Shown here one piece after another: positions 26,213 through 58,187 of a stretch of 64,000 nt of DNA (position 1 is the stretch's first letter; each line of letters opens with the position of its first letter). Location of the stretch: the NCBI GenBank assembly GCA_038231435.1, contig JBBRLJ010000011.1, positions 55,721 to 119,720 on the forward strand. The letters run 5' to 3'. The notes below the pieces were generated by a model, which saw only the letters and a list, made by a program, of their open reading frames with translations, ran no database searches and was not told where the DNA came from. The position numbers were made by a program, and so were the translations under genes. Source of the stretch: Planctomycetota bacterium. Lineage in GTDB: Bacteria; Planctomycetota; UBA11346.

Positions 26213-26269
26213 CTGTCAGTTGGGGGGCTACGGCCCCCCCCCCCAACATCGCGCTCCGCGCTGCCCCCC
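26213..26269 (+). repeat. REP-like element family A, copy 1
   Basis: ctgtcagttggggggcTACGgccc...caacatcgcgctccgcgctgcccc immediately after the stop codon; C-run expanded to 11. Confidence 0.9.
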
Positions 26270-27815: not shown

Positions 27816-28742
27816 CTAGCCGGGGTCTCTGCCTGCGCCCAGACCAGGCTTGGCCTGCCGGCGGAAATCGCGCGGGCTCAAGCCCGAGAAACGCTTGAAG
27901 GCGGTCGAGAACGCGAATTCATTGCGATATCCGATCCAATCGGCGATGCGCTTGAGTGGTTCGTCGGTCTCGCGCAGGAACTGGCGCGCGCGCTCCATGC
28001 GCAGGCGCGTGACCATCGCCATCGGCTTGACGTCGAAATGGCGCGCGCACAGGCGGTACAGATTGATCTGCGATTCGTGCACGTGTCCGGCCAGCGCGGC
28101 CACCGACCACGGATGGCGGAGATTGCGGTCGACCTCGTCCCACAGCTGCTGCAGGCGCCGGCGGATGGCGGCGGAGCGAGGATCGACATCGGCGGCGAGC
28201 TCACGCTCGAGGTAGCAGCCGATCAGCTCGGCGTTGAGCTCGACCGCGCGCCGCGCGCCGTCATCGCTGCCGCGCGCCTCGACGAGGAAGCCTTCCATCG
28301 CGGCCTGCAGGCGCGCGGTGAAGGCGGCGGCATGGATGACGGGGGCGCGACCACGCAGCGCCTGGCCGATGCCCGTCGACAGCGCGAGGTGGAACCACAG
28401 CACCTGCCATCTGGCCGACCTGATGCCGTATGCGCATGGGGTGCCGGCGGGCACGATCAGCAGCTCGCCAGCGCCGATCTCGGCGGGACAGCCTGCTACA
28501 TCGACCCAGCCGCTCCCGGCGACGGTGTACAGCGCGAGATGGAAGGTCGGCTGGGCGCGGCTGATCTCGTACGGCTTGACCAGATCGCTGATGCCCGACC
28601 ACATCACGCCGACATCGCGCAACGCCACCGCTGACTGGTGCTCGATCGCGAGGAAGCGCTCCTGGCAATCCGGCCCGATGACGTGGAGCGTCTTCCGGGG
28701 AGACGGCGGAGAGTGCGGAGCGTCCACCATCGCTGATGGCAT
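27816..28742 (-). CDS. AraC family transcriptional regulator
   Basis: C-terminal double HTH: RLRMERARQFL...IADWIGY.NEFAFSTAFKRFSGLSP..FR. Confidence 0.93.
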   Translation of the reverse strand: MPSAMVDAPHSPPSPRKTLHVIGPDCQERFLAIEHQSAVALRDVGVMWSGISDLVKPYEISRAQPTFHLALYTVAGSGWVDVAGCPAEIGAGELLIVPAGTPCAYGIRSARWQVLWFHLALSTGIGQALRGRAPVIHAAAFTARLQAAMEGFLVEARGSDDGARRAVELNAELIGCYLERELAADVDPRSAAIRRRLQQLWDEVDRNLRHPWSVAALAGHVHESQINLYRLCARHFDVKPMAMVTRLRMERARQFLRETDEPLKRIADWIGYRNEFAFSTAFKRFSGLSPRDFRRQAKPGLGAGRDPG

Positions 28743-28837
28743 GGTGGAAGGATGGTGGCGGGTTCAACGGGGGAATGAGGGAAGCAGAGCGGAGAGCGGA
28801 GTGCCGAGAGCGCAGAAGAAAGCGCCAGGGAGCGATG

Positions 28838-30688
28838 TCAGCGCTTCACCTTGGCCCTCCGGCTCGAAGTCGCCTTGGTGGCGGCGGTGACGGATATCGG
28901 GGTGATGCCGGCCAGCTCGATCGCCGCTGGACGGGCCTGGGCCGCGCGCAGGCGCGCGAGATCGAGCTTGAGTGAGCGGTCGAAGCGGACCACGCCGTTC
29001 TGTTCCTGGAAGACGTCGGTGAGCTGGGTGTAGCAGTAACCGAACATCCGTGGGTCGTCGAGCAGCACCGCACAGAGCCCCGCGAAGCGTAGATGGAATT
29101 CCTCGACTGTCTGCGGCTTGTTGCCATAGCCCCAAGATGGTTCGCCCGGCTTGAGGTCGGGGTTCCACCAGATTCCGCCAAATTCGCTGACGAAATACGG
29201 CTGGCCGCGGTACGGGATGTTGTGCTGGCCGGGCGAATGATTGATGAACGGCTTGCCGATGCGCAGCCCGGCCTGGTTGACCGCGAACGTAGCCGGATCC
29301 TGCTCGTAGTCGTGGCTGTCGTAGATGTCGCTCTCGGCAACGCGGTGCGAATACCCGGACACGTCGAGGACGGGCCGCGAGGTGTCCATCGCCTTGGTGG
29401 CCAGGTACAGCGCGCGCATCAGGTCGTCGTGGGCGTGGATGGTGTCCTCGATGCGGTACGAGGTCTCGTTCATCGGGCACCAGCCGACGATCGACGGATG
29501 GGAATAATCCCGTTCCAGCGCCTCGAGCCATTGCGCCGCATACGTAGCGCCCCACTGCCGCTCATCGTGCAGGTGGCCGAGCGTGCTCCACGACCAGTCG
29601 CCGAATTCGCCCCAGCACAGGTAGCCCATGCGGTCGGCGTGGTACAAGAAGCGCTCCTCGAAGACTTTCTGGTGCAGTCGCGCGCCATTGAACCCAGCGG
29701 CAAGCGACAGCTCGATGTCCTTCACCAGCGCCTGGTCGGACGGCGCGGTCATGATGCCGTCGGGGTAGTAACCTTGGTCGAGCACCAGGCGCTGGAACAC
29801 CGGCTTGCCATTGAGCACCACGGCCATGCCATCGATCGCCACCGAACGCAATCCGGCGTAGCTCTCGACGCGGTCGATGATCACGCCAGACGAATTGCGC
29901 AGCTCGAGGCGCAGCGCGTACAGGTGCGGATCCCCGCACGACCACAAACGGCGGCGCGAGACCGGGATCGGCACCGTCAGGCGCGGCGACAGCTCGAGCC
30001 CGGTGGCGACCGTGGCCTTGGCGACCACGCCCTTCGCGTCCGAGAGCGTCGCGGTCACGGTCATGCCGCGCTCGACGCGCGTGAGCGGTTGCTCGAGATG
30101 GAAGCATCCGTTGGCGACGTCTGGCGTAATGCGCGTGCGCTCGAGCGCGCAAGCCGCGACCGGTTCCATCCATACCGTCTGCCAGATGCCGGTGGTGCGG
30201 GTGTAGTGGCATCCGCAGTTGCCGTGGATCGGCACCTGCTTGCCACGCGGCTGCGGCGGAGCCCAGTCGTCGCGTGCGCGCACCGTGACCACCGCCTTGG
30301 CGCCGGGCGCGACCGCGTCGGTGATGTCGCAGCGGAACGGCGTGAAGCCGCCGCGATGCCGGCCGACCTCGACGCCGTTCACCCACACCGTGGCGTCGTA
30401 GTCCACCGCGCCGAAGTGCAGAACGATGCGCTTGCCCGCCCACGCCTCGGGCACCGGCACGCTGCGCCGGTACCACACCGCCAGCATGCGATCGGTGTAC
30501 CCGATTCCCGACAGCGTCGATTCCGGGCAGAACGGCACGGTGATGGCGCGGTCGAACGGCCTCGACAGTCCGCGCTCGAAGCCGCTGTCGCCGTGATCGA
30601 TCTCGAATTCCCATTGGCCATTCAGGCACAGCCACTCGTCGCGGCGGAACTGCGGACGGGGATATTCGCTACGCGGGATGGACGGCAT
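28838..30688 (-). CDS. Glycoside hydrolase family 2 (paralog 1)
   Basis: EYPRPQF, LHFGAVDY, TTGIWQTVW, LDQGYYPDG, RLHQK, WCPMNE, SEFGG, CYTQLTD. Confidence 0.93.
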   Translation of the reverse strand: MPSIPRSEYPRPQFRRDEWLCLNGQWEFEIDHGDSGFERGLSRPFDRAITVPFCPESTLSGIGYTDRMLAVWYRRSVPVPEAWAGKRIVLHFGAVDYDATVWVNGVEVGRHRGGFTPFRCDITDAVAPGAKAVVTVRARDDWAPPQPRGKQVPIHGNCGCHYTRTTGIWQTVWMEPVAACALERTRITPDVANGCFHLEQPLTRVERGMTVTATLSDAKGVVAKATVATGLELSPRLTVPIPVSRRRLWSCGDPHLYALRLELRNSSGVIIDRVESYAGLRSVAIDGMAVVLNGKPVFQRLVLDQGYYPDGIMTAPSDQALVKDIELSLAAGFNGARLHQKVFEERFLYHADRMGYLCWGEFGDWSWSTLGHLHDERQWGATYAAQWLEALERDYSHPSIVGWCPMNETSYRIEDTIHAHDDLMRALYLATKAMDTSRPVLDVSGYSHRVAESDIYDSHDYEQDPATFAVNQAGLRIGKPFINHSPGQHNIPYRGQPYFVSEFGGIWWNPDLKPGEPSWGYGNKPQTVEEFHLRFAGLCAVLLDDPRMFGYCYTQLTDVFQEQNGVVRFDRSLKLDLARLRAAQARPAAIELAGITPISVTAATKATSSRRAKVKR

Positions 30689-30738
30689 GGGGCTCCTCGA
30701 TGCTTCACGGGTGCGGACGGATGCCGGGGCTCGCGCGG

Positions 30739-32607
30739 TCACGTTGATGCCTTCTTGAGTCGTGCGTTCAGTCGTGCGTTCAGTCGTGATGACTTCTTCG
30801 GCGCGCTGGCATCCGGCGAGACGCCGACCAGCTCGTACGCGGCGGGCCTGGCCTGCGCCGCGCGCAGGAGCGCGGGATCGAACTTCGTGCGGCGGTCGAA
30901 ATGGAAGAGGCCGTTCTCCTCCTGGAAGACGTCGGTGAGCTGCGTGTAGCAGTAGCCAAATACCTCGGGCGCGTCGAGCAGCGCGCCGCACAGCGTCTCG
31001 AAGCGTTCGATGAACTCGGCGACCGACTTCGGCCGCTCACCGTACCCCCACGACGCATCCCCAGCCTTGGCCTCTGGATTCCACCATGCGCCGCCGAACT
31101 CGCTGATGAAGAACGGCTGTCCGCGGTACGGGATGTTCAGGTCCGGCCAGACGTTTGGCTTTCCCTCCGCGAGCCCGGCGATGTTCTCGCGCAGCTTCGC
31201 GGGATCCTGGTCGTAATAGTGCATGTCGTAGACATCGCTGTCCGGGACGCGGTGCGAGAAGCCCGAGATGTCGAGCACGGGCCGCGAACGGTCTGCCGAC
31301 TTGGTGGCGAGATACATCGCCCGCACCAGATCGTCGACCGCGGTGATGCGCTCATCGTTTTTCTGCTTCTGCTCGTTCAGCGGGCACCAGCCGATGATCG
31401 ATGGATGCGAATAGTCGCGCTCGACCGCCTCGAGCCATTGCGCGACGAAGGTGGAACCCGAGCGGTGATGCTCGTTCTGCCAGCCGGGCAGGTGCGCGCC
31501 CCAATCCCCGAACTCCCCCCAGCACAGGTAGCCGAGGCGGTCGGCGTGGTGCAGGAAGCGCTCCTCGAAGACCTTTTGGTGCAGGCGGGCACCGTTGAAA
31601 CCGGCGGATTTCGCCAGCTCGATGTCACGGATCAACGCCGCGTCGCTGGGTGCGGTCATGAGTCCGTCCGGCCACCATCCCTGGTCGAGCACCAGGCGTT
31701 GAAACACGCGTTCGCCGTTGATGACCATGGCCCGGCCCTCGATGCGCACCGAGCGGAGCCCGGCGTAGCTATCGACGCGGTCGACCACCACGCCCTGCGC
31801 GTCGACGAGTTCGATGATCAGGTCGTAGAGGTGCGGATCGGCGGGCGACCACAGGCGGACGCGGCTTTCTGGGATGTCGAGCTCGAGCGCCGGCGCGAAA
31901 TCGCCATCGGCCCTCACCGTGGCGGTGGCGACCACGCCCTTGGAGTCGCGTGCGGTCGCCCGCGCGCGCAGGCCGGTGGCATCGCCGTTGATCGGGAGCT
32001 CGAGCCTGAAGCGGCTGGCGCCGACATCCGGCGTGATGCGCGGCCGGCGCAGATGCGTGCGGTTGACCGCCTCGAGCCAGACCGTCTGCCAGATGCCGGT
32101 GGTGCGGGCATACAGGCAGCCGGAATTGCCGAACGCCTGCGACTGCTTGCCGCGCGCCTGCGGGGGGCGCCAATCGTCGCGGGCCCGCACCACGATCTCG
32201 GCGACTCCGCCGGGCTCGACGACGCCGCGCAGATCGCAGCTGAAGGGCGTGAAGCCGCCGCGGTGGCGCGCGACCTCGATCCCGTTCACCCACACCGTCG
32301 CATCGTGGTCGACGGCCTGGAAGTGCAGCACCACGTCGCGACCCGCCCAGGCGCGCGGCACCTCGACAGAGCGACGGTACCACACCGCCAGCACGCGGTC
32401 GACATGGCCGATGCCGGAGAGCGCGGACTCCGGGCAGAACGGCACGGTGATGCGCTCGGCGAGCGAGCGCTTGTCCATCCCGCGGTCGAGCCCGGTGTCG
32501 CCCGGGTCCATCTCGAACTGCCATTCCCCATTGAGCGAGAGCCAGCGCGAGCGCACGAACTGCGGGCGCGGATGCTCGGGACGTGGGATGCTCGGTGACT
32601 TTGGCAT
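30739..32607 (-). CDS. Glycoside hydrolase family 2 (paralog 2)
   Basis: EHPRPQF, TTGIWQTVW, LDQGWWPDG, RLHQK, WCPLNE, SEFGG, CYTQLTD. Confidence 0.93.
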   Translation of the reverse strand: MPKSPSIPRPEHPRPQFVRSRWLSLNGEWQFEMDPGDTGLDRGMDKRSLAERITVPFCPESALSGIGHVDRVLAVWYRRSVEVPRAWAGRDVVLHFQAVDHDATVWVNGIEVARHRGGFTPFSCDLRGVVEPGGVAEIVVRARDDWRPPQARGKQSQAFGNSGCLYARTTGIWQTVWLEAVNRTHLRRPRITPDVGASRFRLELPINGDATGLRARATARDSKGVVATATVRADGDFAPALELDIPESRVRLWSPADPHLYDLIIELVDAQGVVVDRVDSYAGLRSVRIEGRAMVINGERVFQRLVLDQGWWPDGLMTAPSDAALIRDIELAKSAGFNGARLHQKVFEERFLHHADRLGYLCWGEFGDWGAHLPGWQNEHHRSGSTFVAQWLEAVERDYSHPSIIGWCPLNEQKQKNDERITAVDDLVRAMYLATKSADRSRPVLDISGFSHRVPDSDVYDMHYYDQDPAKLRENIAGLAEGKPNVWPDLNIPYRGQPFFISEFGGAWWNPEAKAGDASWGYGERPKSVAEFIERFETLCGALLDAPEVFGYCYTQLTDVFQEENGLFHFDRRTKFDPALLRAAQARPAAYELVGVSPDASAPKKSSRLNARLNARLKKAST

Positions 32608-32854: not shown

Positions 32855-33679
32855 ATGGCGTCCTGGGCGTTCGCGATCCGTGGTGAAGTGCCGCGCTGGG
32901 CCACCATCGTGCTCGGCCTGGTGCCGATAGCCCTGCTGCTGGGGCTGTGGTGGGGCATCACCCACGGCGAACCCGAGGAGCGGCGCGTCAGCCCCACCAT
33001 CCTGCCCAGCCCGGGCGAGGTGTTCAGCTACCTGCCCCAGTTGCTGACCCACAAGGGCGAGAACAACCAGGGCAACTTCCTGTTCCACAACGTGTGGGCG
33101 AGCGGCAAGCGCGTCATCAAGGGCTTCCTGCTGGCCCTGGTCATCGTCATGCCGATCGGCATCGGCATGGGCGCCTTCGCCAGCATCCGTGCCACCTTCG
33201 GCTCGTTGATGACCGCGAGCGGCTATATTCCCATCGCCACCCTGGTGCCATTGACCATGTCGTGGTTCGGCACCGACGAGAAGCAGAAGGTCATCTTCCT
33301 GGCCATGGCCTTCGGCATCTACCTGCTGCCGCTGGTGGTGAAGGCCATCGATGGCGTGCCAGATGTGTTCCTGCGCACCGCCCAGACCCTCGGCGCCACC
33401 CGTGCGCAGATCGTCACCCGCGTGCTGGTACCCATCGCCATGCCCGACCTGTGGCATGCCATGCGCCTGGCCTTCGGTGTCGGCTGGACCTACATCGTGC
33501 TCACCGAGGCGTTGGTGCAGACCGACGGCCTCGGCTACCTGATCGAGATCGCGCGCCGCCGCGGCCCGCGCGAGCAGATCTACCTGGTGATCATGATCAT
33601 CACCATCATCGCATGGTTCGCCGACCAGCTGTGGATGCGGATCGGCCGCTGGCTCTTCCCGTACCGGCAGGCGCGCTGA
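32855..33679 (+). CDS. ABC transporter permease, NitT/TauT/SsuC type
   Basis: ILPSPGEV, P...L.PL...WFG, EAA-like loop 'AQTLGA', GLGYLI. Confidence 0.92.
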   Translation: MASWAFAIRGEVPRWATIVLGLVPIALLLGLWWGITHGEPEERRVSPTILPSPGEVFSYLPQLLTHKGENNQGNFLFHNVWASGKRVIKGFLLALVIVMPIGIGMGAFASIRATFGSLMTASGYIPIATLVPLTMSWFGTDEKQKVIFLAMAFGIYLLPLVVKAIDGVPDVFLRTAQTLGATRAQIVTRVLVPIAMPDLWHAMRLAFGVGWTYIVLTEALVQTDGLGYLIEIARRRGPREQIYLVIMIITIIAWFADQLWMRIGRWLFPYRQAR

Positions 33680-34566
33680 TGGCCGCCGCGATACCACCGC
33701 TTCATCCCACGCAGAGCGCGGCGCCGGCCACGGCCCCGCCGCCGATCGTCGAGTTCCGTAACGTCACCATGCGCTTCGGCGACTTCGTCGCCCTGCACGA
33801 CGTGTCCTTCCGCATCGAGGACGTGCCCGATCGCGGCGAGTTCGTGACCATGCTCGGGCCCTCGGGCTGCGGCAAGAGCACGGTGCTGAACCTCATCACC
33901 GGTTTCCTGCAGCCGAGTTCGGGTGAAGTACTGGTGCATGGCAAGCCGGTGGACGGCCCCACCCGCGACCGCGGCATGATCTTCCAGCAGTACAGCTCGT
34001 TCCCCCACCTCACGGTACTCGACAACGTGCGCTTCGGCTTGGATCTCAACCGCCATGAGCTCAAGCTCGATGGCAAGATGCGCCACGAGCGCGCCATGGA
34101 TCTGATCGGCCAGGTCGGCTTGGCCGGGCACGAGTCAAAGTACCCGCACCAGCTCTCGGGAGGTCAGCAGCAGCGTGTCGCGATCGCGCGATCACTCGCG
34201 CTCGAACCGCGCATCCTGCTGATGGACGAGCCGTTCTCGGCGCTCGATGAACCGACGCGCATCGAGATGCAGGAGCTGGTGGTGGGGCTGTGGAACCGCA
34301 TCAAGCCGACGGTGTTCTGCGTCACCCACAGCATCACCGAAGCGGTGTACCTCGGCGAGCGGGTGTGGATCTTCGCGGCCAATCCCGGGCAGATCGTCTA
34401 CGACATCCGCGATCCGATCCCGCCCTCGCCTGGCATCTCGCCGATGACCGCGCAGGAGCTGCCCGCGTTCAAGCAGGCGGCGAAGGTGGTGGGCGAGGCC
34501 TTCCGGCATGTCGCCGACAACCGCCGTCCGGCTGGCGGGCAGCCTGCCTCCGGGGGCGGGGGCTGA
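33679..34566 (+). CDS. ABC transporter ATP-binding protein, NitT/TauT/SsuB type
   Basis: GPSGCGKST, YPHQLSGGQQQRVAIAR, LMDEPFSALD, VTH; start overlaps the permease stop (TGATG). Confidence 0.95.
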   Translation: MAAAIPPLHPTQSAAPATAPPPIVEFRNVTMRFGDFVALHDVSFRIEDVPDRGEFVTMLGPSGCGKSTVLNLITGFLQPSSGEVLVHGKPVDGPTRDRGMIFQQYSSFPHLTVLDNVRFGLDLNRHELKLDGKMRHERAMDLIGQVGLAGHESKYPHQLSGGQQQRVAIARSLALEPRILLMDEPFSALDEPTRIEMQELVVGLWNRIKPTVFCVTHSITEAVYLGERVWIFAANPGQIVYDIRDPIPPSPGISPMTAQELPAFKQAAKVVGEAFRHVADNRRPAGGQPASGGGG

Positions 34567-35435
34567 TGGCCTCGGCTCCCGGGCTGATGGATTACGTCTC
34601 GGCGGCGTTCAACGCGCGGCCAGTCGGGATGTTCGTGCCGCCGAACTGGGTCGGTGTCGCCGCCTTCGGCATGCTCGGTTTGATCAATCCCGGGCTATGG
34701 GTGGTCGGCGCGGGGCTCGAACTCGGCTACCTGTTCTGGCTGGTCCACGAACCCCGCTTCCGCCACATTGTCGAGGGCAGGGTGGTGGACGCCACCCAGC
34801 AGGAATGGCAATTGAAGATCGCGTCGCAGGTGTCGCGGCTGAGTCAGAAGAACCGCGGCAAGTATCAGAATCTCGAATCGCGCTGCCTCGCGATCATCGA
34901 CCAGCAAGGCCAGGCAAATGCCGGAGCGTCGGGGCTCGACACCCAGGCCGACGGCCTGAGCCGCCTGCTGTGGATCTACCTGAGGCTGCTGCAGACCCGC
35001 GAATCGATCGCGCGCATCGACGATGGCGCGCCCAGCGCCGATGGCGAGCGCGAGCGTCTCGAGGAGCGCGCCCAGGCGCTGGCCAAGCAGCTGAAGGATG
35101 CGTCGTTGGCCGACGATCTGCGCAAGAGCCTCTCCGGCCAGCTCGACATCGTGCAGCAGCGCCTCGCGAAGCGTAAGGAAGCCGCGTCCAAGGGCGCGTT
35201 CGTCGAAGCCGAAATCCAACGCATCGAGGAGCAGGTCGAGCTGATCCGCGAACAGGCGATGCTCGCTTCCGATCCGCAGAGCGTGTCGCAGCGTATCGAC
35301 GAGGTGGCCGCCACCCTGGGCGGCACCAGCGATTGGATCCGCGACCAGCAGCAGGTGTTCGGCCAGGTCGAGGACCTGATCAGCGCGCCGCCGCCGCTGG
35401 TGAGCGCGAAGGTCCGCGAACGGCAGGCGAATTGA
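34566..35435 (+). CDS. Uncharacterised protein: N-terminal TM hairpin plus long coiled-coil region
   Basis: Start overlaps the upstream stop (TGATG); hydrophobic N-terminal hairpin, then heptad-rich E/Q/R/L helices. Confidence 0.85.
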   Translation: MASAPGLMDYVSAAFNARPVGMFVPPNWVGVAAFGMLGLINPGLWVVGAGLELGYLFWLVHEPRFRHIVEGRVVDATQQEWQLKIASQVSRLSQKNRGKYQNLESRCLAIIDQQGQANAGASGLDTQADGLSRLLWIYLRLLQTRESIARIDDGAPSADGERERLEERAQALAKQLKDASLADDLRKSLSGQLDIVQQRLAKRKEAASKGAFVEAEIQRIEEQVELIREQAMLASDPQSVSQRIDEVAATLGGTSDWIRDQQQVFGQVEDLISAPPPLVSAKVRERQAN

Positions 35436-35528
35436 GATATCATTGCGATCCCTCTCCAGTGCCCCTTTCATCAGCACTCTCTTATCAGTGCCTCTTCTCA
35501 CCGTGCCCATAGTGAATGAGCGAGCGAC

Positions 35529-36188
35529 ATGAGCATCATCGATCAGCTGCGCGCCGTCGGTGGCCGCCTCGGCATCCTGCAGATCGAGCAGCCGAAGACC
35601 GCCAAGACGCTGACCAAGGTGGTCACGCGTGTCCTCACCCTGGCCGAGCTCGAGAGCGAGGTCGCAGTCGCCGGTGGCGCGCTGCAGGCGCGCGAGCGCG
35701 CTGAGCTGACCAATGATTTCATGGGTATCTGCACCGCTGCCGGCGTCCTCGAGCCGAAGCACGGCTGGACCATCGAACGCCTCGAACACGAACTTCGCCA
35801 ACCGACCTTCGCCGGGCTCCAGCGCGCCGCCGCCCAGGCCGCCATCCTCGAGAGTCTGCGCGCCGCCGGCGTCCCGGTCGAGGACGTGGTTCGCGACGCG
35901 GTCGCCCGCGACCAGGCCGTCGACGCGTATGCCGCCGGCATCCGCGAGCAGCTCGCGAGACGTGGCCGGGCCCGCGGCGAACGCCGCGCCGCCATTGCCC
36001 AGGAGATCGCCCGCCTCACCGCCGAACGCGATCAGCTCGAGACCGCCCATGCCGCCGAGCGCGAACGCTGGCGCGCCTGGTGGGCCCTCAAGCACGAGAA
36101 CGAGGTCGCCATGGCCTGGGCCCTGAGCCACCTCCTCGATCAGCCGCTGGTGTCGGTCGACTCGACCCCGCCATCGATCGACAGCTGA
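35529..36188 (+). CDS. Uncharacterised helical/coiled-coil protein
   Basis: GC3-biased 219-aa ORF; 'DAVARDQAVDAY' followed by a coiled coil. Confidence 0.8.
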   Translation: MSIIDQLRAVGGRLGILQIEQPKTAKTLTKVVTRVLTLAELESEVAVAGGALQARERAELTNDFMGICTAAGVLEPKHGWTIERLEHELRQPTFAGLQRAAAQAAILESLRAAGVPVEDVVRDAVARDQAVDAYAAGIREQLARRGRARGERRAAIAQEIARLTAERDQLETAHAAERERWRAWWALKHENEVAMAWALSHLLDQPLVSVDSTPPSIDS

Positions 36189-36452
36189 GTGTTCTGGCGC
36201 CGTTCCGACGGGACGGATGGCTGGAGATAGGGTTCGGCGAGCGGACCACCGCCGATGACGACCTGGAGTGTTGCCCAGCCACGCATTCGCCACGCATCCG
36301 CGCCCCGCGCCGAAGGCCTCCACGGGCCCCGGGCGCCAACTAACAGTTTGCACACCCGCCTCGCAGGCGAATAACATCACCTCCCGCGGGAAACCGCGTA
36401 TCGCACGGCGCCTGGCAATTCGCCGGGCGCCGGATCCTTCGAGGAGCGCATC

Positions 36453-38273
36453 ATGGCCGATGACAAATCAGCGGGCCTCACCGGGCTTGGCAAATTCCTC
36501 TCCTTCATCGTCATCATCGGGCTGATCGGCCTCGGCGTCTGGATCTTCCAGCGCCAGGAGGCTGCGCACGCGCAGGGTGCGGCGAATCCAGCCACCGGTA
36601 CGGCTACGACCACCGCGGGCGCGGCCACCGGCGGCGGCACCACTGCGGCTGCCGCGGGCGGAACCGCCGCCGCTGTCGCCGCGGGAACCGCCGGAGCGAC
36701 TCCTGCGGGGGCCGGGCTCGAGGCTCCCGACGCCGGCAGCGTCACCACGGTGAAGGAATACAAGTTCGTGCCCGCGGAGAAGCTGCCGCCGGTGAAGGGC
36801 GTCAGCCAATACAAGTGGAACGAGGCCGACAAGGTCCTGCGCTTCACCTATAACGTCTGGTCGGGCTGGCTGCCGGTGGTGGCAGCCAACCACGGCACCA
36901 AGGCCAACACCGACAGCCTCTTCTTCAAGAAGCACGGCTTCAAGGTCGAGATGGTGCTGATGGACGACCCGGTCGCGGCGCGCGACGCTTACGCCTCGGG
37001 CGACGTGCACACCCTGTGGGGCACCGTCGACATGATGGTGCTGTTCGCCCCCGAGCTGGCCCGCGATTCGCGCACCGCGCCGCGCATCGTCCAGCAGCTC
37101 GACTGGTCCAACGGCGGCGACGGCATCGTCGTGCGCAAGGCGATCCGCACGGTCAAGGACCTCAAGGGCAAGACCGTCGCTCTCGCGCAGAATTCGCCCA
37201 GCGAGTACTACCTCACTTCGCTGCTGCTGTCGGCTGGCATGAAGCCCGCAGACATCAAGACCAAGTACACCGCCACCGCCTTCGAGGCCGCCGCGGCGTT
37301 CGTCAGCGATCCTTCGATCGACGCCACCGTCTCGTGGTCGCCAGACATCTACAACATCGTCGACCGCGTCGCCGACACCAAGATCCTCTCATCCACCGCC
37401 GATGCCAACAAGCTGATCGCCGACGTCTACGCGGTGCGCGCTGATTTCACCCGCGACCATCCGGATGTCGTCCAGGGCCTGGTCGAGGGCATCCTCGAAG
37501 GCATGGACGAGGTGAAGAAGAATCCCGAACAGGCGTGCGCCTGGATGGCCGACGCATTCGGCATGAAGCCCTCCGACGTCATGGCGATGCGCAACGATGC
37601 GCACCCGACCAACGCCGCCGAGAACGCCCAGTTCTTCCTGAATTCGTCGAATCCGACCAACTTCGAACGCACCTGGAAGAGCGCGAGCTACGTCTACCGC
37701 GAGCTCGGTCGCATCAACGCCCCGGCGCTGTTCGATCAGGTGATGGACTTCACCTACATCCAGAAGGCCCAGGCCTCGGGCACCTTCAGCTCGCAGAAGG
37801 ACGAGAGCGTGGCCACCTTCACGCCCTCGACCCCGAAGAAGGTCAGCGCCGAGGCCCCGATCCTCACCCAGACCATCCGCATCAACTTCTATCCGAACTC
37901 GTCGAATCCCTTCGAGCCGGCGCGCGACGACGTGGGCATGGTCCAATCCGGCAAACTCTACGATCCGAACGTCACCTCGACGCTCGAGCAGGTCGGTCGC
38001 CTGGCCGGCCAGTTCGCGCGCGCCACCATCCTGATCCAGGGCTTCACCGACGATAGCATGCGCGGCAAGGTTCCCGAGAAGGAAGTGAAGCTGCTGAGCA
38101 CCGAGCGCGCCGAGGCGATCAAGCGCTCGCTCATCGACAAGTTCAAGTTCGACCCGAACAAGTTCGTCATCGAGGGCAAGGGCTGGGAAACCCCAGCCGA
38201 CGCCTCGGACCCGCACAACAACTCGCTCAACCGGCGCGTCGAGATCAGCGTCTACCCCCCGGAAGAGAAGTAA
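36453..38273 (+). CDS. Membrane-anchored ABC substrate-binding protein (NMT1/SsuA-like) fused to C-terminal OmpA-like domain
   Basis: GAGGAG RBS; N-terminal TM, Ala/Thr/Gly linker, DWSNGGDGIV, DLKGKTVA; C-terminal GFTD, LSTERAEAI, NRRVEI. Confidence 0.9.
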   Translation: MADDKSAGLTGLGKFLSFIVIIGLIGLGVWIFQRQEAAHAQGAANPATGTATTTAGAATGGGTTAAAAGGTAAAVAAGTAGATPAGAGLEAPDAGSVTTVKEYKFVPAEKLPPVKGVSQYKWNEADKVLRFTYNVWSGWLPVVAANHGTKANTDSLFFKKHGFKVEMVLMDDPVAARDAYASGDVHTLWGTVDMMVLFAPELARDSRTAPRIVQQLDWSNGGDGIVVRKAIRTVKDLKGKTVALAQNSPSEYYLTSLLLSAGMKPADIKTKYTATAFEAAAAFVSDPSIDATVSWSPDIYNIVDRVADTKILSSTADANKLIADVYAVRADFTRDHPDVVQGLVEGILEGMDEVKKNPEQACAWMADAFGMKPSDVMAMRNDAHPTNAAENAQFFLNSSNPTNFERTWKSASYVYRELGRINAPALFDQVMDFTYIQKAQASGTFSSQKDESVATFTPSTPKKVSAEAPILTQTIRINFYPNSSNPFEPARDDVGMVQSGKLYDPNVTSTLEQVGRLAGQFARATILIQGFTDDSMRGKVPEKEVKLLSTERAEAIKRSLIDKFKFDPNKFVIEGKGWETPADASDPHNNSLNRRVEISVYPPEEK

Positions 38274-38329
38274 GCCTTCACCGCATTAACAACCGGTACC
38301 GGACCATTCGACCTTCGATCGGAGCCACC

Positions 38330-39091
38330 ATGTTCAGCCGCATCGCCAACCTCTTCCGGGGATTCCTGGGACTCTTCGTCTCGGGTCTCGAGCGCCGCAA
38401 TCCAGAGGCGCTGCTCGAGGTCGAGCAGGAGAACCTGCGCAAGCAGATCGCCCAGTACAACCAGGGCCTGGCCTCGCACGCGGGCATGTGCGAGCGGCTG
38501 ATGTCCCAGGTGAAGAAGCTCGAGATCGAGGAGCGCGATCTGCGCGCCAAGACCGCCGCCAACCTCAAGGTCGGCAATCGCGCCGCCGCGGGCCAGTACG
38601 CCTTGCGCCTGCAGACGGTCACCCGCGAGCTCGACGAGAACCGCGCGCAGCTCGAGCAGGCCGAGACCACCTACAAGGACCTGACCAAGGCCCGCGACAT
38701 CGCCATCTCCACCGCCAAGTCCAAGCTCGAGAGCCTCAAGGGCGCGATCCAGGACATGAAGATGAAGAAGGCCATGGCCGAGATGAACGAGATGGCCTCG
38801 GGCATGATCTCGAACATCGGCGGCGCCGGCGACACGCTCAACCGCCTGCAGACCATGGTCGAGGACGAGCGCACCAAGGCGGCCGGCCGCGCGCGCGTCG
38901 CCAAGGACTCGATCAACATGAACGACGTCAACCTCAAGGAATCCGAGCAGTCGGCGCTCGCCGACCAGGCGCTCGCCGATTTCGCCGCCAAAGAAGGCAT
39001 GGCCTTCGAGGGCGGGCCGGCGGTGGGGACAGCGGCGCCTGCGGCGCAGAAGAGCATGGGTCCGGCCACCGGCGAGAGCGCGTCCACCTGA
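38330..39091 (+). CDS. PspA/IM30 family protein (ESCRT-III superfamily)
   Basis: GGAG RBS; amphipathic N-terminus MFSRIANLFRGFL, 'NPEALLE', long coiled coil, A....A.QYAL. Confidence 0.9.
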   Translation: MFSRIANLFRGFLGLFVSGLERRNPEALLEVEQENLRKQIAQYNQGLASHAGMCERLMSQVKKLEIEERDLRAKTAANLKVGNRAAAGQYALRLQTVTRELDENRAQLEQAETTYKDLTKARDIAISTAKSKLESLKGAIQDMKMKKAMAEMNEMASGMISNIGGAGDTLNRLQTMVEDERTKAAGRARVAKDSINMNDVNLKESEQSALADQALADFAAKEGMAFEGGPAVGTAAPAAQKSMGPATGESAST

Positions 39092-39092
39092 C

Positions 39093-40814
39093 ATGCCGAC
39101 ACCGGCGACGCCCATCAGCGCCCGTCAGCGCCTGCAGGCCATGGGCCTGCCACGCTGGGCCGAGGATCTGATCACCCAGTACGAGAGCGGCGCCACCAGC
39201 CAGTTCCTGTGCTATGGCAACGTCAACGACCGGCTGCTGCTTCCGCTCTCGGGTAAGGCTCCAGCGCACGAGGAGCTCGGCGGCTTCACCGATTTCCTGG
39301 TCAAGGTATTGCTGCCACGCTTCGACGTGGTGCTGAGCTTCGATCTCGGCAACGGTCTGCGCCTCGAAAAAGGCGGCGATGTCTTCAGCCAATGGCCGCG
39401 CCTGAAAGGCGTCGAGCTGCCGCCGCTGCCAAAGACCCCGCGCGAGGCCATCGACTACCTGACCCAGTACTTCCGCTACTGCGCCAACCTGGCGAAGCTC
39501 GGCACCTCGCGCCTGCAGATCGGCTGTCTGATCAAGGGTGCGGATCTGCTGGTACCGGCCTCGATGGGCGCGAACAGCTACGACACCAGCGCGCTCGCCA
39601 GCCAGATGCGCGACTGGGCGGCCGATGGCACGCTCAGCGGCCATACCCTGGCGACCTTCCTGATCGCCGACAACCTCAATGACCTGCATCCGCTGATCGT
39701 CAACAATCCGCGGGCCTCGCAGGCCAAGGTCCCTCTGCCGTCGGCCGACGATCTCGCGCGGGCCCTCGCGTTGATGGCTCCGAGCTACCCGGTCGCGCTC
39801 GGCGCTTTGGCTAAGGATCTGCCCGCGACCGCCGCAGGCCTCGCAGGCGCCACGCTCAGCTCGATCGAGGCCCTGCTCAAGACCAAGGAGCACCTCGGCG
39901 AGGCGCTGTCGACCGATGATCTGGTGGCCGTGAAGAAGGCCCTGGTCGAGAAGGACTGTGCCGGACTGATCGAATTCATCGATTCGAAGCGCACCCTCGA
40001 TGACATCCATGGCCAAGAGAAGTTGAAGGCTTGGCTGCGCCAGGACATCGCGCTGTGGCGCGCGGGTGACGTGCAAGCGCTGCCAATGGGGTACCTGGTG
40101 TGCGGCCCTGTCGGCACCGGCAAGACCTACCTGGTCGAATGCCTCGCGGGAGAGGCCGGCGTTCCGGTGGTGAAGCTCAAGAATTTCCGCGACAAATGGG
40201 TTGGTTCGACCGAGGGCAACCTCGAGAAGATCTTTCGCCTGATCCACGCTCTCGGGCGCGCCTTCGTGTTCATCGACGAGGCCGACCAGGCCCTTGGCAA
40301 GCGCGACTCGGGATCCACCGACGGCGGCATCGGCGGACGCATCTACGGCATGATGGCCGAGGAGATGTCGAACCCGAACAACCGCGGCTCGATCGTCTGG
40401 ATCCTGGCCTCGAGCCGGCCGGATCTCATCGAGGTCGACCTCAAGCGTCCCGGCCGCGTCGACGTGAAGATCCCGATCTTCCCCACCACCACCGCTGATG
40501 AGAGCTGGCGTCTGATCCGAGCGCTCGCGAAGCGCCGCGGACTGGCCTTCGCCGACGCCGATTTCCCCGCGCTCGAATCGATGCTGCCGTTGCTGCTCAC
40601 TCCTGGCGCCGCCGAAGCCCTGGCGGTGAAGACCTATCGCATGGTGCGCACCGCCGGGCTGCAGCCCATGCTGGCGCTGAAGGAATGCCTGACCGGATAC
40701 CAGAACCCGGTGCCCAAATCGGTCATGGATTTCCAGATCGCCCTAGCCGTCGACGAAGCGACCGACCTGGATTTCGTGCCGCAGTCGCTGCGCAGCTATG
40801 GTAAACGTACATAG
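39093..40814 (+). CDS. AAA+ ATPase (classical clade) with large N-terminal region
   Basis: Walker A GPVGTGKT, pore loop KWVG, Walker B FVFIDE, Arg finger LKRPGR; starts 1 nt after the PspA stop. Confidence 0.93.
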   Translation: MPTPATPISARQRLQAMGLPRWAEDLITQYESGATSQFLCYGNVNDRLLLPLSGKAPAHEELGGFTDFLVKVLLPRFDVVLSFDLGNGLRLEKGGDVFSQWPRLKGVELPPLPKTPREAIDYLTQYFRYCANLAKLGTSRLQIGCLIKGADLLVPASMGANSYDTSALASQMRDWAADGTLSGHTLATFLIADNLNDLHPLIVNNPRASQAKVPLPSADDLARALALMAPSYPVALGALAKDLPATAAGLAGATLSSIEALLKTKEHLGEALSTDDLVAVKKALVEKDCAGLIEFIDSKRTLDDIHGQEKLKAWLRQDIALWRAGDVQALPMGYLVCGPVGTGKTYLVECLAGEAGVPVVKLKNFRDKWVGSTEGNLEKIFRLIHALGRAFVFIDEADQALGKRDSGSTDGGIGGRIYGMMAEEMSNPNNRGSIVWILASSRPDLIEVDLKRPGRVDVKIPIFPTTTADESWRLIRALAKRRGLAFADADFPALESMLPLLLTPGAAEALAVKTYRMVRTAGLQPMLALKECLTGYQNPVPKSVMDFQIALAVDEATDLDFVPQSLRSYGKRT

Positions 40815-40896: not shown

Positions 40897-40948
40897 GGGG
40901 GGCAGCGCGGAGCGCGATGTTGGGGGGCCGTAGCCCCCCAACTGACAG
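40897..40948 (-). repeat. REP-like element family A, copy 2
   Basis: Reverse complement of copy 1, directly after the ruvX stop. Confidence 0.9.
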
Positions 40949-41478: not shown

Positions 41479-44400
41479 TCACTTGCCGGCCGCGAATTCG
41501 AGCCTGCGGGCGCTCACGTATTGGTGTTCCGCCCTGGTGAGCCCGAGCCCGAACGGCTCCTCGGCCAAGCTGCATTCCCGGTACTCGGCGTCCGCCGCGA
41601 GCCAATCGCGCGCCAGCTCTGCTTTAAGGCCTCGCGCCAGGTGCAGCCGCGCGCGGACCTGGATCTGGTACGGTTGGCGCAGGAATTCCTCCTCGCCTAT
41701 CCGACCCGCCACCAGAGCGGCCAGGTACCAGGCGCGTTGGCCGCCCCAGAGATGCCCATGCTCCAGGACCTCGGTGAATGCGACGCGCGGATCGACCTGC
41801 TCGCCGGCGCGATTGGCAGTCAGGGCTGGCAGGAAGCAGCGCGTGAACACCACCATGTAGTTGTCCATGTCCCCCTGGCCTCGACACAACCTGCTCAACA
41901 GCTCGCGCCCTCGCTCGCGCATCGACGGGTCCTCGAGAATCATGAAGGCCGCGCACTCGTACGATACCAGGTCGTAGTCGTGGCTCCCTGCCATCGCCTC
42001 GTCATAGCGGCCGAGATGCTCAAGGATGCTCTGCTTGAGCCAGGTCGGTTCCGCCAGCGGTAGGGCCTCCTCGAAGCGCTCTTGGGCGATGAGGACCCTG
42101 CACTGCAGGGTCTTGTTTCCTGGAGCGAGCGCGAGCGCCTCATCGAAACGCCTGAGCTCGAAGCGCAATTCAGCATCGCGCGGAAAGAGTTCGAGCGCGC
42201 GATCCTGCTTACCCATCACCAGCAGCGCTTCCCAGCGGAATAAGGTATGGAAATTGCCGCTGTCCGCGAGCTCCGGCAAGCGGCCGAGCGCGAGCAGGGC
42301 ATGAGCAGCCTGGAAGGTCATGGCCGGATAGGTCGCGAGCACGTCCTCGTAGCGCCCGGTGGCGAGGAGGGCATCTGCGCAGATCACGCTGTCCTCGGGG
42401 AAGTACTCGGGTACGAGCTCGCTGCGACCGAGCCAGGCCAGGACCTTCGCTGCGTCGCGGCTGAAGCGGGTTTCGGTGTATGACGCTCCGATGGCCGGAA
42501 GCCAGCCGCGGAGCCGCGTCATCGCGTGCGCGATCCGCTCGGGCGCATCGGCTGGAAATTTGACGCCGCTATCAACACGCATGCCCGCCGGGTGGATGGC
42601 GCGGGCGAATTCGTCATCGACCAGGCGGTTGGCGACCGACGTGAGGACCGGGTGGCCTGGAAACGCCGCCAGGCCATCGAGCGCGGCCTGGCGCTCGCGC
42701 GCATCGTCGGCGGCACTCGCGAGCGACAGGCGCTCGCGCAGGCAGTAGGGCATGAGCTCGTGGTGGGCGTGCGACGCCGCGAAGCGGTCGAGCAGCGCCT
42801 TCGCCTCGTCGCCCTTGCCCTCGCGCACACGACACACCGCCATCCCGTACAGAGCCTCCGGCTCGAGAGCGGAGCCGGGATAGGCTTCCAGGATGTCGAG
42901 GAACTGCTCGTAAGCCTGGGGATAGCGCTGCATCTCGAGCAGCTTGCGTCCGAACGCGATAGGCGACACGCGCCGTGCGAGGGGCTTGTGCCAGATGCCG
43001 ACCGCGGCGACGCGATTGCCGAGGGCGTGGGTGCTATCGAAACCGAAGAGACCGTCATCGGGGACGTCGGTGGGATCGAGATCGCTGTAGTCGATGACCT
43101 CGACACCATCGATCACCAGGAGCAGCCGGTTCCCCTCCTTCTCCATGCGGAAATGATGGGGGCTCCTCGCCGACAATGGCGCCATCGATCGACGCTGGAG
43201 CACCACCGTGCCCTTGGTCAGCGTGACGCTGTCCCTCAAGCCGAAGCCTCCGGTGTGGAAGGTGTATCCCGACTCGCGGTCCTTGCCCTCGATGAAGCAG
43301 TTGAGGTTGGTGCCGTCGAACAGCGAGGTGTAGTCCCACTCGACGCGCAGGTCTCCGAGGACGGGCCGCTGGTGGATGAGGTCAACGAATCCCTCGCGGG
43401 AGTGCATCAACATGGCCCCCGGTTCGCGGGTGAAGGCCGCATCATCGATGGAAATGGGCCGCGACGCCGGCCACGTCCACTCCTTGTACGCTCCGGTCCA
43501 CTCGGCATGGATGTCGCCTGAGAAATCCTCGCGCCCCACGAGTATCCAGCTGGTGCGCTCCTTGGCCTTCTCGACCGCCATCATCGCCGTCATGCACGCC
43601 ACCGTCACGCACGCCGCGGCGGCGGTCCAGAAGATGCGGCGATTGGCCCGGTACCAGCGCAGCAGCATGCGGGCCAACGGCTCCCGGTGCACGCTCACCG
43701 CCAGCCCCGCCTGGTAGCGTTCGAGGTCGCGAGCGAGATCGGTGACGGTAGCGTAGCGTTTACCGGGGTCGGGAGCGAGGGCGGTCGCGGCGATGCTCAG
43801 CAGCTCAGGTGGGCAGAGTGCGCGTTCAGCGGGCTCGAGCGCATCGATGACGCCGCGGCGCTTCTTGTCCCAGAAGCTGTCGCTGTCGTCGGACCAGGTC
43901 GGCTGACGCAGAGTGAGGGCATGGAACAGCGCGGCACCGATCGCGTAGATGTCGCTACGCGCATCGCTGTACTCGCTGCGCGCCTGCTCGGGGCTCATGT
44001 AGAGAGGAGTACCGTAGAGGCGCGACATCGTGCGCCCATCGGCGCCCACGCGCGCCGCGCTGCCCCAGTCGAGCACCAGCACCTCTCCGAAATCTCCGAG
44101 CAGGATGTTGTCGGGCTTGATGTCCTGATGGACGAGGCCGCGGTTGTGCGCGTATCCGAGCGCGTGGCAGATGGCGATGAAGATGGTGACGATCGCGTTC
44201 GGGGTGGCGATCTTCGCGTCGCGCGCCTCGGTCGTCGAGCGCGACAGCACATCGCCCAGCGTGACTCCGTCGATGCGGCTCATGCTGAAGCACGGCCTGC
44301 CGGCGTCGTCAACGCCGAGATCGTGGACCGGAAGCACGTTCGGATGCTGGAGCGACGCCGTCACCCGCGCCTCCTCGAGCAGTCCGAGCAGATCCTGGTC

Positions 44401-44688
44401 GCCCGGCTCGGCGCCGTGGCGCAGCATCTTCACCGCGATCGTGCGCTGCAGATCGCGATCGAATACCGCGTAGACCTGCCCCGTCGCACCGACTCCGAGC
44501 ATGGCGCCGAACTCGAAGCGCGGGCCCGGGCTGCCACCGGTCAGGCGGGGGGCGAGCGAAGACTCAGACATCGACGGCGGAGCGTCGGAGCCCGTGACCG
44601 AGGGCGACGCCATGGACGATCCATCCGCACTGCCCACGGTGGCACCGAGCGAACGTCGCAGCGCATCCACCTCGATATGCTCCGCCAT
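41479..44688 (-). CDS. Hanks-type Ser/Thr protein kinase with putative TM segment, beta-sandwich domain and TPR-like repeats
   Basis: LGVGATGQVY, IAVK, HQDIKPDN, LDWG, GTPLYMSPEQ, SDIYAIG. Confidence 0.93.
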   Translation of the reverse strand: MAEHIEVDALRRSLGATVGSADGSSMASPSVTGSDAPPSMSESSLAPRLTGGSPGPRFEFGAMLGVGATGQVYAVFDRDLQRTIAVKMLRHGAEPGDQDLLGLLEEARVTASLQHPNVLPVHDLGVDDAGRPCFSMSRIDGVTLGDVLSRSTTEARDAKIATPNAIVTIFIAICHALGYAHNRGLVHQDIKPDNILLGDFGEVLVLDWGSAARVGADGRTMSRLYGTPLYMSPEQARSEYSDARSDIYAIGAALFHALTLRQPTWSDDSDSFWDKKRRGVIDALEPAERALCPPELLSIAATALAPDPGKRYATVTDLARDLERYQAGLAVSVHREPLARMLLRWYRANRRIFWTAAAACVTVACMTAMMAVEKAKERTSWILVGREDFSGDIHAEWTGAYKEWTWPASRPISIDDAAFTREPGAMLMHSREGFVDLIHQRPVLGDLRVEWDYTSLFDGTNLNCFIEGKDRESGYTFHTGGFGLRDSVTLTKGTVVLQRRSMAPLSARSPHHFRMEKEGNRLLLVIDGVEVIDYSDLDPTDVPDDGLFGFDSTHALGNRVAAVGIWHKPLARRVSPIAFGRKLLEMQRYPQAYEQFLDILEAYPGSALEPEALYGMAVCRVREGKGDEAKALLDRFAASHAHHELMPYCLRERLSLASAADDARERQAALDGLAAFPGHPVLTSVANRLVDDEFARAIHPAGMRVDSGVKFPADAPERIAHAMTRLRGWLPAIGASYTETRFSRDAAKVLAWLGRSELVPEYFPEDSVICADALLATGRYEDVLATYPAMTFQAAHALLALGRLPELADSGNFHTLFRWEALLVMGKQDRALELFPRDAELRFELRRFDEALALAPGNKTLQCRVLIAQERFEEALPLAEPTWLKQSILEHLGRYDEAMAGSHDYDLVSYECAAFMILEDPSMRERGRELLSRLCRGQGDMDNYMVVFTRCFLPALTANRAGEQVDPRVAFTEVLEHGHLWGGQRAWYLAALVAGRIGEEEFLRQPYQIQVRARLHLARGLKAELARDWLAADAEYRECSLAEEPFGLGLTRAEHQYVSARRLEFAAGK

Positions 44689-44761: not shown

Positions 44762-45136
44762 GCACTCGCCGCTGGACGGCCGCGTCCGCCATCCTCGCAA
44801 GAGATGTGGCGGCCGAGGAAAGTCCGGGCTCCACAGGGCATGGTGGCTGGCAAATCCAGCCGTCTCCCGTTGCGGGGGGATAGGGACAGTACAACAGAAA
44901 GCGAACCGCCACGGCCGAAAGGCCGGGGTAAGGGTGAAAAGGCGGGGTAAGAGCCCACCGGGTGCGCCGCGAGGCGGACCGCATTGCAAACCCCACCAGG
45001 AGCAAGCCCAGATCGCGGAGAGGCGCTGCCCGCGCCGTCGGATCCGCAGGTAGGGCGCATGAGCTGCGGCGGCAACGCCGTGGTCGAGAGAAATGGCCGT
45101 CCTCGACAGGACCCGGCTTATAGGCGGCTTCCGCAC
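44762..45136 (+). ncRNA. rnpB: RNase P RNA (bacterial type A); ends approximate
   Basis: GAGGAAAGTCCGGGCTCC at 44815, ACAGAAA, GGGTGAAA.GGCGGGGTAAGAGCCCACC, GAGCAAG, GACAGGACCCGGCTTAT near 45105. Confidence 0.97.
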
Positions 45137-52690: not shown

Positions 52691-52749
52691 CTTTTTGTTG
52701 GGGGGCTACGGCCCCCCAACATCGCGCTCCGCGCTGCCCCCTGGGAAGC
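52691..52749 (+). repeat. REP-like element family A, copy 3
   Basis: gttggggggcTACGgccccccaacatcgcgctccgcgctgccccctgggaagc after the SDR stop. Confidence 0.9.
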
Positions 52750-52918: not shown

Positions 52919-52961
52919 GGGGCAGCGCGATGTTGGGGGGCCGTAGTCCCCCAACTGAAAG
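52919..52961 (-). repeat. REP-like element family A, copy 4 (variant), inverted relative to copy 3
   Basis: ggggcagcgcgatgttggggggccgtagtcccccaactgaaag. Confidence 0.85.
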
Positions 52962-58127: not shown

Positions 58128-58187
58128 GCTTCCCAGGGGGCAGCGCAGAGCGCGATGTTGGGGGGGCCGTAGCCCCCCAACTGAAAG
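58128..58187 (-). repeat. REP-like element family A, copy 5
   Basis: Minus strand ctttcagttggggggcTACGgcccccccaacatcgcgctctgcgctgccccctgggaagc directly after the stop at 58188. Confidence 0.9.

Follow-up and report, generated by a model that had tools for sequence, protein, structure and literature searches.

Does a bacterial PspA polymer have a dedicated ATPase of its own, as ESCRT-III has Vps4? The question is raised by a seven-gene locus at positions 32855 to 40814 of a 64,000-nucleotide stretch of DNA from a Planctomycetota bacterium (assembly GCA_038231435.1, contig JBBRLJ010000011.1, positions 55,721 to 119,720 of the forward strand; the whole stretch is called the window below), in which a gene for PspA/IM30, which belongs to the ESCRT-III superfamily, is directly followed by a gene for a tandem AAA+ ATPase. 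PspA family proteins polymerise on membranes, and classical AAA+ rings thread substrates using an aromatic pore loop. We report here that PspA, the ATPase and a membrane-anchored helical protein are the core of a real, conserved gene cluster, beyond chance, and that a conserved motif at the tail of PspA suggests, from sequence comparison, how the ATPase might grab its partner.

The operon type has already been described in silico, and the present locus adds a member to it. According to Ravi et al. 2024 (mSystems, PMC11237479; this and the other sources are cited from the available sections of their texts), PspA of bacteria is found together with a protein that has two AAA+ domains, the first of them inactive. 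PspA, a 'divergent Snf7' protein with a transmembrane (TM) anchor and the ATPase make up the operon, to which longer versions add genes for ABC ATPase, permease and PBPB+OmpA protein. An ATP-dependent membrane remodelling, likened to Snf7/Vps4, was proposed there for this operon type, while the regulation of PspA assembly was left open in the sections cited. A 2025 review (PMC7619361) states in its available part that bacteria seem to lack a Vps4-like regulator of PspA polymers, and that ESCRT-III tails recruit Vps4 through short tail motifs. As far as the available text of Makarova et al. (PMC11188069) goes, systems of vps4 and ESCRT-III occur only among archaea and eukaryotes; in that of Popp et al. 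2022 (PMC9239133) the term AAA/ATPase appears only in the reference list. The original prediction for this locus, made from the letters of the window alone, had supposed that similar neighbourhoods might exist in surveys without functional characterisation; both the operon type and its comparison with ESCRT/Vps4 had indeed been published in 2024 (PMC11237479). No experimental study of the operon type and no mention of the tail motif was found in the literature searched, which covered few subscription papers. This operon family is an obvious candidate for a remodeller of PspA in bacteria.

A three-gene core within the locus

The locus consists of seven intact open reading frames (ORFs), all co-directional on the + strand and separated, from gene 1 to gene 7, by −1, −1, 93, 264, 56 and 1 nt. 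The core is formed by gene 3 (34566..35435, 289 aa), which encodes a helical-bundle protein with an N-terminal membrane anchor, gene 6 (38330..39091, 253 aa), which encodes PspA, and gene 7 (39093..40814, 573 aa), which encodes a degenerate N-terminal and an active classical-clade AAA domain in tandem. The other four genes, for an ABC importer and a soluble helical protein, are accessories. TGATG overlaps are found on both sides of the gene for the ABC ATPase, that is, with the permease gene before it and with gene 3 after it. ORF calls, gaps and coordinates agree with the original prediction in the seven co-directional genes and their spacing, in the TGATG coupling and in the single nucleotide between pspA and the ATPase gene.

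To define the core, 61 ATPase-centred loci were examined; four further family-positive genomes were not among them, and one of the 61 came from a single-protein scan of genome contigs, which gave 5 loci. The metagenome set consisted of the best 80 of 542 confirmed relatives and is biased to the ATPase subclade of the window, because the 80 closest were taken. Gene content was counted on the 25 of its loci that are flanked by at least 2.5 kb in each direction, leaving aside 55 short ones. PspA was found in 24 of these 25 loci, gene 3 in 20 and the fusion of a solute-binding protein (SBP) with an OmpA-like domain in 6, against a lone ABC ATPase in 2 and neither permease nor gene 4 in any. All seven genes stand together in 6 of the 61 loci: in the gene order of the window at L028 and L030, from two other genera, and in other orders at L100, L101, L102 and L106. 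All but gene 4 are together in 7 more. The gene directly upstream of the ATPase gene is gene 3 in 37 of the 61 loci and pspA in 17, and PspA often forms a dyad with the ATPase in which the TM gene is missing.

A comparison with 36 other genomes of the family to which the window belongs, at thresholds of our own, gave a consistent picture. An orthologue of the ATPase was present in 19 (two of them fragments at contig ends), of PspA in 20 and of gene 3 in 19. All three core genes occurred in 16 of the 36, two in 5 (72-85% complete), one in none, and none in 15, several of which hold more distant members of the ATPase family. PspA and ATPase were jointly present (18) or jointly absent (15) in 33 of the 36; no p-value is attached to this co-occurrence because kin genomes are not independent. 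Of the 18 genomes that hold the two genes, 7 have them on different contigs. In G006 and G022, of one genus, each gene lies mid-contig among unrelated genes, unlinked from the other, and in G029 the ATPase gene is likewise mid-contig among unrelated genes. Even a distant ATPase subclade adjoins a divergent PspA of its own (hhalign P 96.3), and the same was seen in G255 and G019. It can be seen that the genes co-occur in other genomes, in the same order in two other genera, and that the partners are kept despite varied gene order and unlinking. The dedicated PspA and AAA+ machine that the original prediction had proposed stands in so far as these genes form a conserved, coupled system, with an intact second ATPase domain, whose association survives gene shuffling and operon break-up.

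A conserved motif at the tail of PspA

The product of gene 6 is assigned to PF04012 (PspA_IM30) with 37.2 bits against a cut-off of 33.9, and the profile of its family matches Vipp1/PspA structures at E 4e-12. Its N-terminal helix is amphipathic (hydrophobic moment 0.70 over residues 2-12). Ordinary PspAs of the phylum stop just past the last helix. The ATPase-linked PspAs extend beyond it by a variable Ala/Pro-rich linker of 12-28 residues, followed by [KR]-x-[MLI]-G, usually with P next, at a median of 6 residues from the C-terminus. In the window this motif reads K-S-M-G-P (residues 241-245, 39050..39064, + strand). Of 76 paired PspAs, 71 have [KR]-x-[MLI]-G within the last 22 residues, where shuffling predicts 0.99, and the motif persisted when the set was reduced to representatives at 60% identity (8 of 10) or at 45% (6 of 7). 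G244 is present in 74 of 77 PspAs. Among ordinary PspAs (30 loci minus 3 family members) the pattern occurs in 3 of 27, each time within the terminal helix and without linker.

The motif is kept in 6 of 7 complete family PspAs that are unlinked from the ATPase gene. In the divergent subclade the tail ends differently, with LPE in 10 of 11 PspAs and PE in 11 of 11, and a more distant twelfth also has LPE; the PspA tails of L039/L118 read RQKIAE. A motif that is short, conserved and carried on a variable linker typically marks a docking site. The motif may therefore be regarded as a candidate docking tag resembling the MIT-interacting motif (MIM) of ESCRT-III. Its conservation behind a variable linker and its change with the ATPase subclade speak, at the level of sequence, for PspA as the partner on which the ATPase acts.

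The ATPase falls outside the clade of bacterial Vps4-like proteins

Pfam assigns the product of gene 7 to its AAA family. The active domain D2 (39978..40652) contains a Walker A motif, a Walker B motif of sequence DEAD, an aromatic pore loop (W/Y369-x-G371) and R452/R455. Among 58 aligned family members, K344, D395, E396, G371, R416, R452 and R455 are invariant and position 369 is always W or Y. Judged by these motifs, D2 is an intact active domain of the translocase type. In the preceding domain D1 (39132..39968), G-N-V-x-D stands where Walker A would be, so that its Lys is missing, as is the DE of Walker B. The D1 profile matches Cdc48/p97 at E 2.8e-12. Its alignment with D2 of the same chain is weak (P 66.8), that with the N-halves of Ycf46-like ATPases good (P 94.3, E 1e-7) and that with the N-halves of bacterial Vps4-like proteins absent (P 0.4); a search for the MIT domain gave no match in 46 family members, and a Pfam scan of the D1 alignment gave scattered coiled-coil or lid matches only. 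Since the Walker motifs are lost and the profile points to Cdc48/p97 and to Ycf46-like proteins, D1 is a catalytically dead AAA domain and not an MIT domain.

The origin of the ATPase was examined in a quick tree of 106 D2 domains, made up of 39 of the 58 family rows and 67 reference domains of the same phylum. SpoVK and archaeal or eukaryotic Vps4 were not among the references; the Vps4-like ones are bacterial proteins with 207-240 bits to the CdvC model, below its cut-off of 650, and the tandem dead and active AAA proteins are called Ycf46-like on our assumption, from their Walker A pattern and size. The family forms one clade (support 96, and 96-98 across trees, in the Shimodaira-Hasegawa-like approximate likelihood ratio test, SH-aLRT), apart from 21 Vps4-like, 11 FtsH, 4 Cdc48-like and 12 other domains. 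Its sister is the separate clade (SH-aLRT 100) of 16 Ycf46-like domains, with a support of 94 and a long-branch warning on the join. A joint clade with the bacterial Vps4-like proteins was rejected by the approximately unbiased test (p-AU 0.0039; 46 rows, quick tree). In agreement with this, no Vps4_C domain (PF09336) was matched on the ATPase at E≤0.05, while 4 of 6 bacterial Vps4-like references matched at E≤0.001; the ATPase scored 31.5 bits with the CdvC model against 65.8 with Cdc48, and the closest solved relatives of its family are VAT/Cdc48/p97. The phylogeny asked for with the original prediction thus places the ATPase outside the Vps4-like clade, apart from FtsH and next to Ycf46-like proteins, with which it shares the dead and active AAA architecture and an alignable N-half while forming a clade of its own. 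Because MIT and Vps4_C are both missing and the ATPase falls outside the Vps4-like clade, the name 'Vps4-like' holds as an analogy only.

The genome also carries a Ycf46-like gene of its own on another contig. Elsewhere in the phylum, 21 of 251 genomes hold proteins at E≤1e-60 to the CdvC model (L140-L160), most of which form the Vps4-like clade; two are Cdc48.

The membrane-anchored partner

Gene 3 has a hydrophobic segment at residues 29-47 and 1632 homologues; these bear Acidobacteria names and belong to clusters of Acidobacteriota and Verrucomicrobiota. No Pfam family exceeded its cut-off for gene 3 or gene 4, and a scan of the gene 3 alignment gave scattered coiled-coil or lid matches only. 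Its predicted model is compact and helical (predicted local distance difference test score, pLDDT, 91.6; predicted template-modelling score, pTM, 0.83). Its position corresponds to that of the protein labelled 'TM+Snf7' by Ravi et al. No relation emerged from hhalign comparisons among gene 3, gene 4 and PspA (P≤2.5; gene 3 with PspA, P 0.6), nor did gene 3 align with the divergent subclade's TM genes (P 3.1). In Foldseek, Vipp1 came at rank 16 (E 0.88, TM-score 0.22; the monomer model may not show the polymer conformation), and the best match of the VIA search was a designed bundle (Z 8.8) among generic helical matches. The 50 VIA matches listed for gene 3 contained no ESCRT-III chain, a result with which a relation is still compatible. 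As neither the profile nor the fold search links it to ESCRT-III, the published 'Snf7' label was not reproduced. One profile match of gene 3 to 'PspA' (2pms, E 3.7e-5) was rejected: this is pneumococcal surface protein A, a coincidence of names combined with a coiled-coil match.

The nearest named cluster in the ESM comparison is Rv2743c/PspM (0.87, 184 shared features), which is a lead only. Retention of a PspA species at the mycobacterial membrane requires PspM (bioRxiv 10.64898/2026.09.09.750162, available part), and this provides a functional analogy for gene 3.

Comparison with known systems

Of the type of Ravi et al. (example OGG56892.1: 'inactive-Classical-AAA+Classical-AAA', 'SIG+TM+Snf7', 'PBPB+OmpA'), the PspA gene, the dead and active tandem AAA, the membrane-anchored helical partner and ABC/PBPB+OmpA are present here. 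The gene order differs, and the likeness is one of description; relative to the available text of that paper, the tail motif and the co-retention after operon break-up are additions. With the archaeal and eukaryotic ESCRT-III and Vps4/CdvC systems the locus shares a superfamily subunit whose flexible C-terminal tail bears a short conserved motif, and an adjacent classical AAA+ ATPase with aromatic pore loop. It differs from them in the tandem dead and active AAA architecture, besides the missing domains and the place in the tree noted above. In proteobacterial pspFABC, too, PspA is encoded with an AAA+ protein. Here the ATPase is a classical-clade tandem AAA without a sigma-54-activator or helix-turn-helix match, and PspC (PF04024) gave 0 matches in the 87.6%-complete genome, a control being positive in 7 of 14. 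That pspB, pspC and pspF are missing from the locus, as originally noted, was borne out among its genes and the scanned flanking genes: no pspB-type ORF lies in the locus, and no Sigma54_activat match fell on the ATPase or 6 flanking proteins, a genome-wide search having been made for neither pspB nor pspF. The mycobacterial ClgR-PspA-PspM operon (Rv2745c-Rv2744c-Rv2743c) resembles the locus in combining PspA with an N-terminally anchored helical membrane partner; the locus has no transcription factor, contains in addition the ATPase and importer, and offers no support from hidden Markov models (HMMs) for PspM homology.

A possible mechanism and its alternatives

We consider the chances about even that the three core proteins maintain the envelope and that the ATPase remodels or recycles the PspA polymer by docking on its tail. 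By the properties of the PspA/Vipp1 family, PspA would polymerise on the inner membrane face through its amphipathic N-helix, and the product of gene 3, by analogy with PspM, might anchor or position it there. The tandem ATPase would form a double ring, of which the dead D1 ring would dock on the short motif ending the flexible tail of PspA while the active D2 ring would pull PspA subunits through its aromatic pore loop, so that the polymer is remodelled or recycled. The wall-tethered importer and the gene 4 protein would be add-ons in some lineages, and the system a convergent, not homologous, counterpart of ESCRT-III/Vps4. A bolder version, which we put forward tentatively and hold to be rather doubtful, is that the tandem ATPase is an independently evolved bacterial motor for disassembly of ESCRT-III polymers, in which dead D1 replaces MIT and reads a subclade-specific tag (K-x-M-G-P, LPE, RQKIAE) as the counterpart of the MIM code, the TM protein being a distant PspM-like anchor and not Snf7. 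If true, this would mean convergent evolution of ESCRT-III disassembly in bacteria. A sharp test is offered by the five-residue tail motif and by a three-protein core that is separable from the transporter.

Several observations weigh against remodelling of PspA by the ATPase. The motif is absent from 5 of the 76 paired PspAs, and also from a second family PspA in one genome (L322). Its reader could be the TM protein or the polymer itself, and the match between motif and ATPase subclade is no proof of co-evolution, because both are inherited with kinship. No PspA was found in the ATPase-bearing genomes G131 (90% complete), G007 (89%) and G010 (77%), and basal ATPase paralogues (L119/L122) adjoin unrelated genes. 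In D2 the sensor-1 Asn is mostly Ser, Ala or Cys. As to the anchor, the PspM HMM PF25587 gave no match on gene 3 (E≤1) and was not among the 25 of 83 families listed for 112 gene 3 members. Finally, PspA-PspF, in the available part of PMC7619361 the only characterised pairing of PspA with an AAA protein, is regulatory and not one of disassembly.

This last pairing is also a precedent for PspA being a regulator or adaptor of the ATPase and not its substrate: the ATPase would extract TM-helical or damaged membrane proteins, and PspA would restrain it until stress. The TM gene as the commonest upstream neighbour of the ATPase gene, the TM gene and ATPase without detected PspA in G131 and G010, and the VAT/Cdc48/p97 extractases as best solved relatives would all fit. 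However, no partner is as constant as PspA (24 of 25 loci, against 20 of 25 for the TM gene), dyads of PspA and ATPase do without the TM gene, and the C-termini of the TM proteins differ between subgroups to which the PspA tail motif is common, and we consider this explanation unlikely. Less credence still is given to one centred on transport, by which the core serves to assemble, position or quality-control an ABC importer tethered to the wall, or the system is switched on by a periplasmic signal that the importer senses. The genes for permease, ABC ATPase and TM protein are translationally coupled, several families, the divergent subclade among them, combine permease, ABC ATPase and SBP-OmpA genes with the ATPase, and SBP-OmpA often follows the TM gene even apart from the ATPase (L327, L328). 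Against this stand the counts among the well-flanked loci, drawn from a set in which one subclade dominates (permease 0 of 25, SBP-OmpA 6 of 25), the many loci with SBP-OmpA but no ABC genes nearby, and the NCBIfam matches of the importer, all of them below cut-off and so giving no ligand. Because the ABC module and gene 4 are optional, they are not a general sensing step, as the importer had been in the original prediction; and of the two coiled-coil adaptors proposed there gene 3 belongs to the core, while gene 4 is optional (0 of the 25 metagenome loci).

It is improbable, to a slightly greater degree, that the locus is a membrane-acting module for defence or toxin resistance, directed at phage or pore-formers and not at general envelope upkeep. 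The distribution is patchy (ATPase family in 47 of 301 phylum genomes, E≤1e-30) and vWA-domain genes and a DUF3686 ATPase lie beside some loci; yet within the family each orthologue is present in one copy and strongly conserved (71-79% identity for PspA), the GC content of the locus is that of its surroundings, and no mobile-element genes flank it (Pfam scan of the neighbours). A chance or merely co-inherited cluster, with PspA and ATPase functionally unlinked, is the one explanation that we hold to be very improbable. Operon break-up is common, as the 7 genomes with the two genes on different contigs show, but in 33 of 36 genomes the two are present or absent together, which largely refutes it, and the association is kept across many gene orders and separate ATPase subclades.

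The accessory genes

Gene 1 (32855..33679, +, 274 aa) encodes an ABC importer permease of SsuC/TauC type (PF00528, BPD_transp_1, E 3.8e-12), whose nearest NCBIfam models, SaoP and TauC, are all below cut-off. Gene 2 (33679..34566, +, 295 aa) encodes a TauB/SsuB-like ABC ATPase (PF00005, ABC_tran, E 5e-32) in which Walker A, signature, Walker B and H-loop are visible. The product of gene 5 (36453..38273, +, 606 aa) is a membrane-anchored SBP of the NMT1/SsuA/TauA class with a C-terminal OmpA-like domain; a TM anchor at residues 15-33 is followed by a linker, NMT1 (157-361) and OmpA (504-589), and the closest solved structures are TauA, SsuA and Omp38. Asp533 is found in 23 and Arg552 in 24 of 24 aligned rows; we take these to be the residues that bind diaminopimelate (DAP)/peptidoglycan.

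Gene 4 (35529..36188, +, 219 aa) encodes a soluble helical protein of a family without name, with 692 clusters at 50% identity (E≤0.001). Its predicted model (pLDDT 92.0) shows a small helical domain and a helix of ~84 residues, and its alignment the conserved motifs D-A-x-x-R-D-x-x-x-D and W-x-x-x-K-x-x-x-E. A fold search gave generic helical matches, none above Z 6.0, and a Pfam scan of the alignment scattered coiled-coil or lid matches only. It occurs in 18 of 400 other phylum genomes, in 17 of them at ≤1.5 kb from another system gene, and is defined here as a system-specific family.

Genes 1 and 3-6 have themselves as sole tblastn match in their own genome (E≤1e-5), and the GC content at third codon positions (GC3) is 0.85-0.94 across all seven genes. 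The gap between gene 4 and the SBP-OmpA gene (36189-36452, 264 nt) is far longer than at L028 and L030, where ~50 nt separate the matches. It may contain an internal promoter or an insertion. Scans of the locus for sigma-70 sites (0 found, 0.8 expected) and terminator-like sites (3 found, 3.7 expected) were uninformative, no Rfam family was matched within it, and its intergenic repeats included nothing notable.

Variant loci and the surroundings of the locus

At L120 (12006-17555), L128 and L134, of the divergent subclade, a gene for a protein of ~1800 aa precedes pspA and the tandem ATPase gene. The L120 protein combines DUF3686 and AAA, and loci of this type resemble, by description, the CesT/band-7-linked ATPase operons in the available text of Ravi et al. 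A nine-gene version at L121, L126, L127, L129, L132 and L133 has up to three solute-binding proteins and a vWA protein, together with a different TM-helical gene, PspA, permease, ABC ATPase and tandem ATPase. The basal paralogues at L119 (3288-5340) and L122 (6581-8575) are followed by a ~340-aa protein without name and a pyruvate-kinase-barrel protein, not by PspA, and are possibly a separate system. Genome G016 contains a very divergent PspA-like gene (L353:1468-2241), missed by Pfam and with yet another tail, which is unlinked from its stand-alone tandem ATPase gene (L124). G020 (L028) has the seven-gene version; in its congeners G028, G033 and G036 the locus is shorter and the ATPase more distant (58-60% vs 64%), so that replacement by transfer is possible.

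On one side the locus is flanked by a tandem pair of GH2 glycoside hydrolase genes and then an AraC regulator gene (~27816-32607, −), divergent from the operon, and on the other by RuvX and kinase genes. The kinase (41479-44688, −) is a 1069-aa Ser/Thr kinase with a TM segment, TPR repeats and a central domain without Pfam match. Further along lie an RNase P class A RNA (44768-45132, +) and a partial 5S rRNA (63909-64000, −). Between the ATPase gene and the convergent ruvX, at 40919-40947, there is a palindromic repeat with a perfect 10-bp stem, which recurs in the window at 26214-26242, 52692-52720, 52932-52960 and 58158-58186 and has 92 matches in the genome at ≤3 mismatches (both strands counted). 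It is an element like the repetitive extragenic palindromic (REP) sequences, and possibly serves as a bidirectional terminator.

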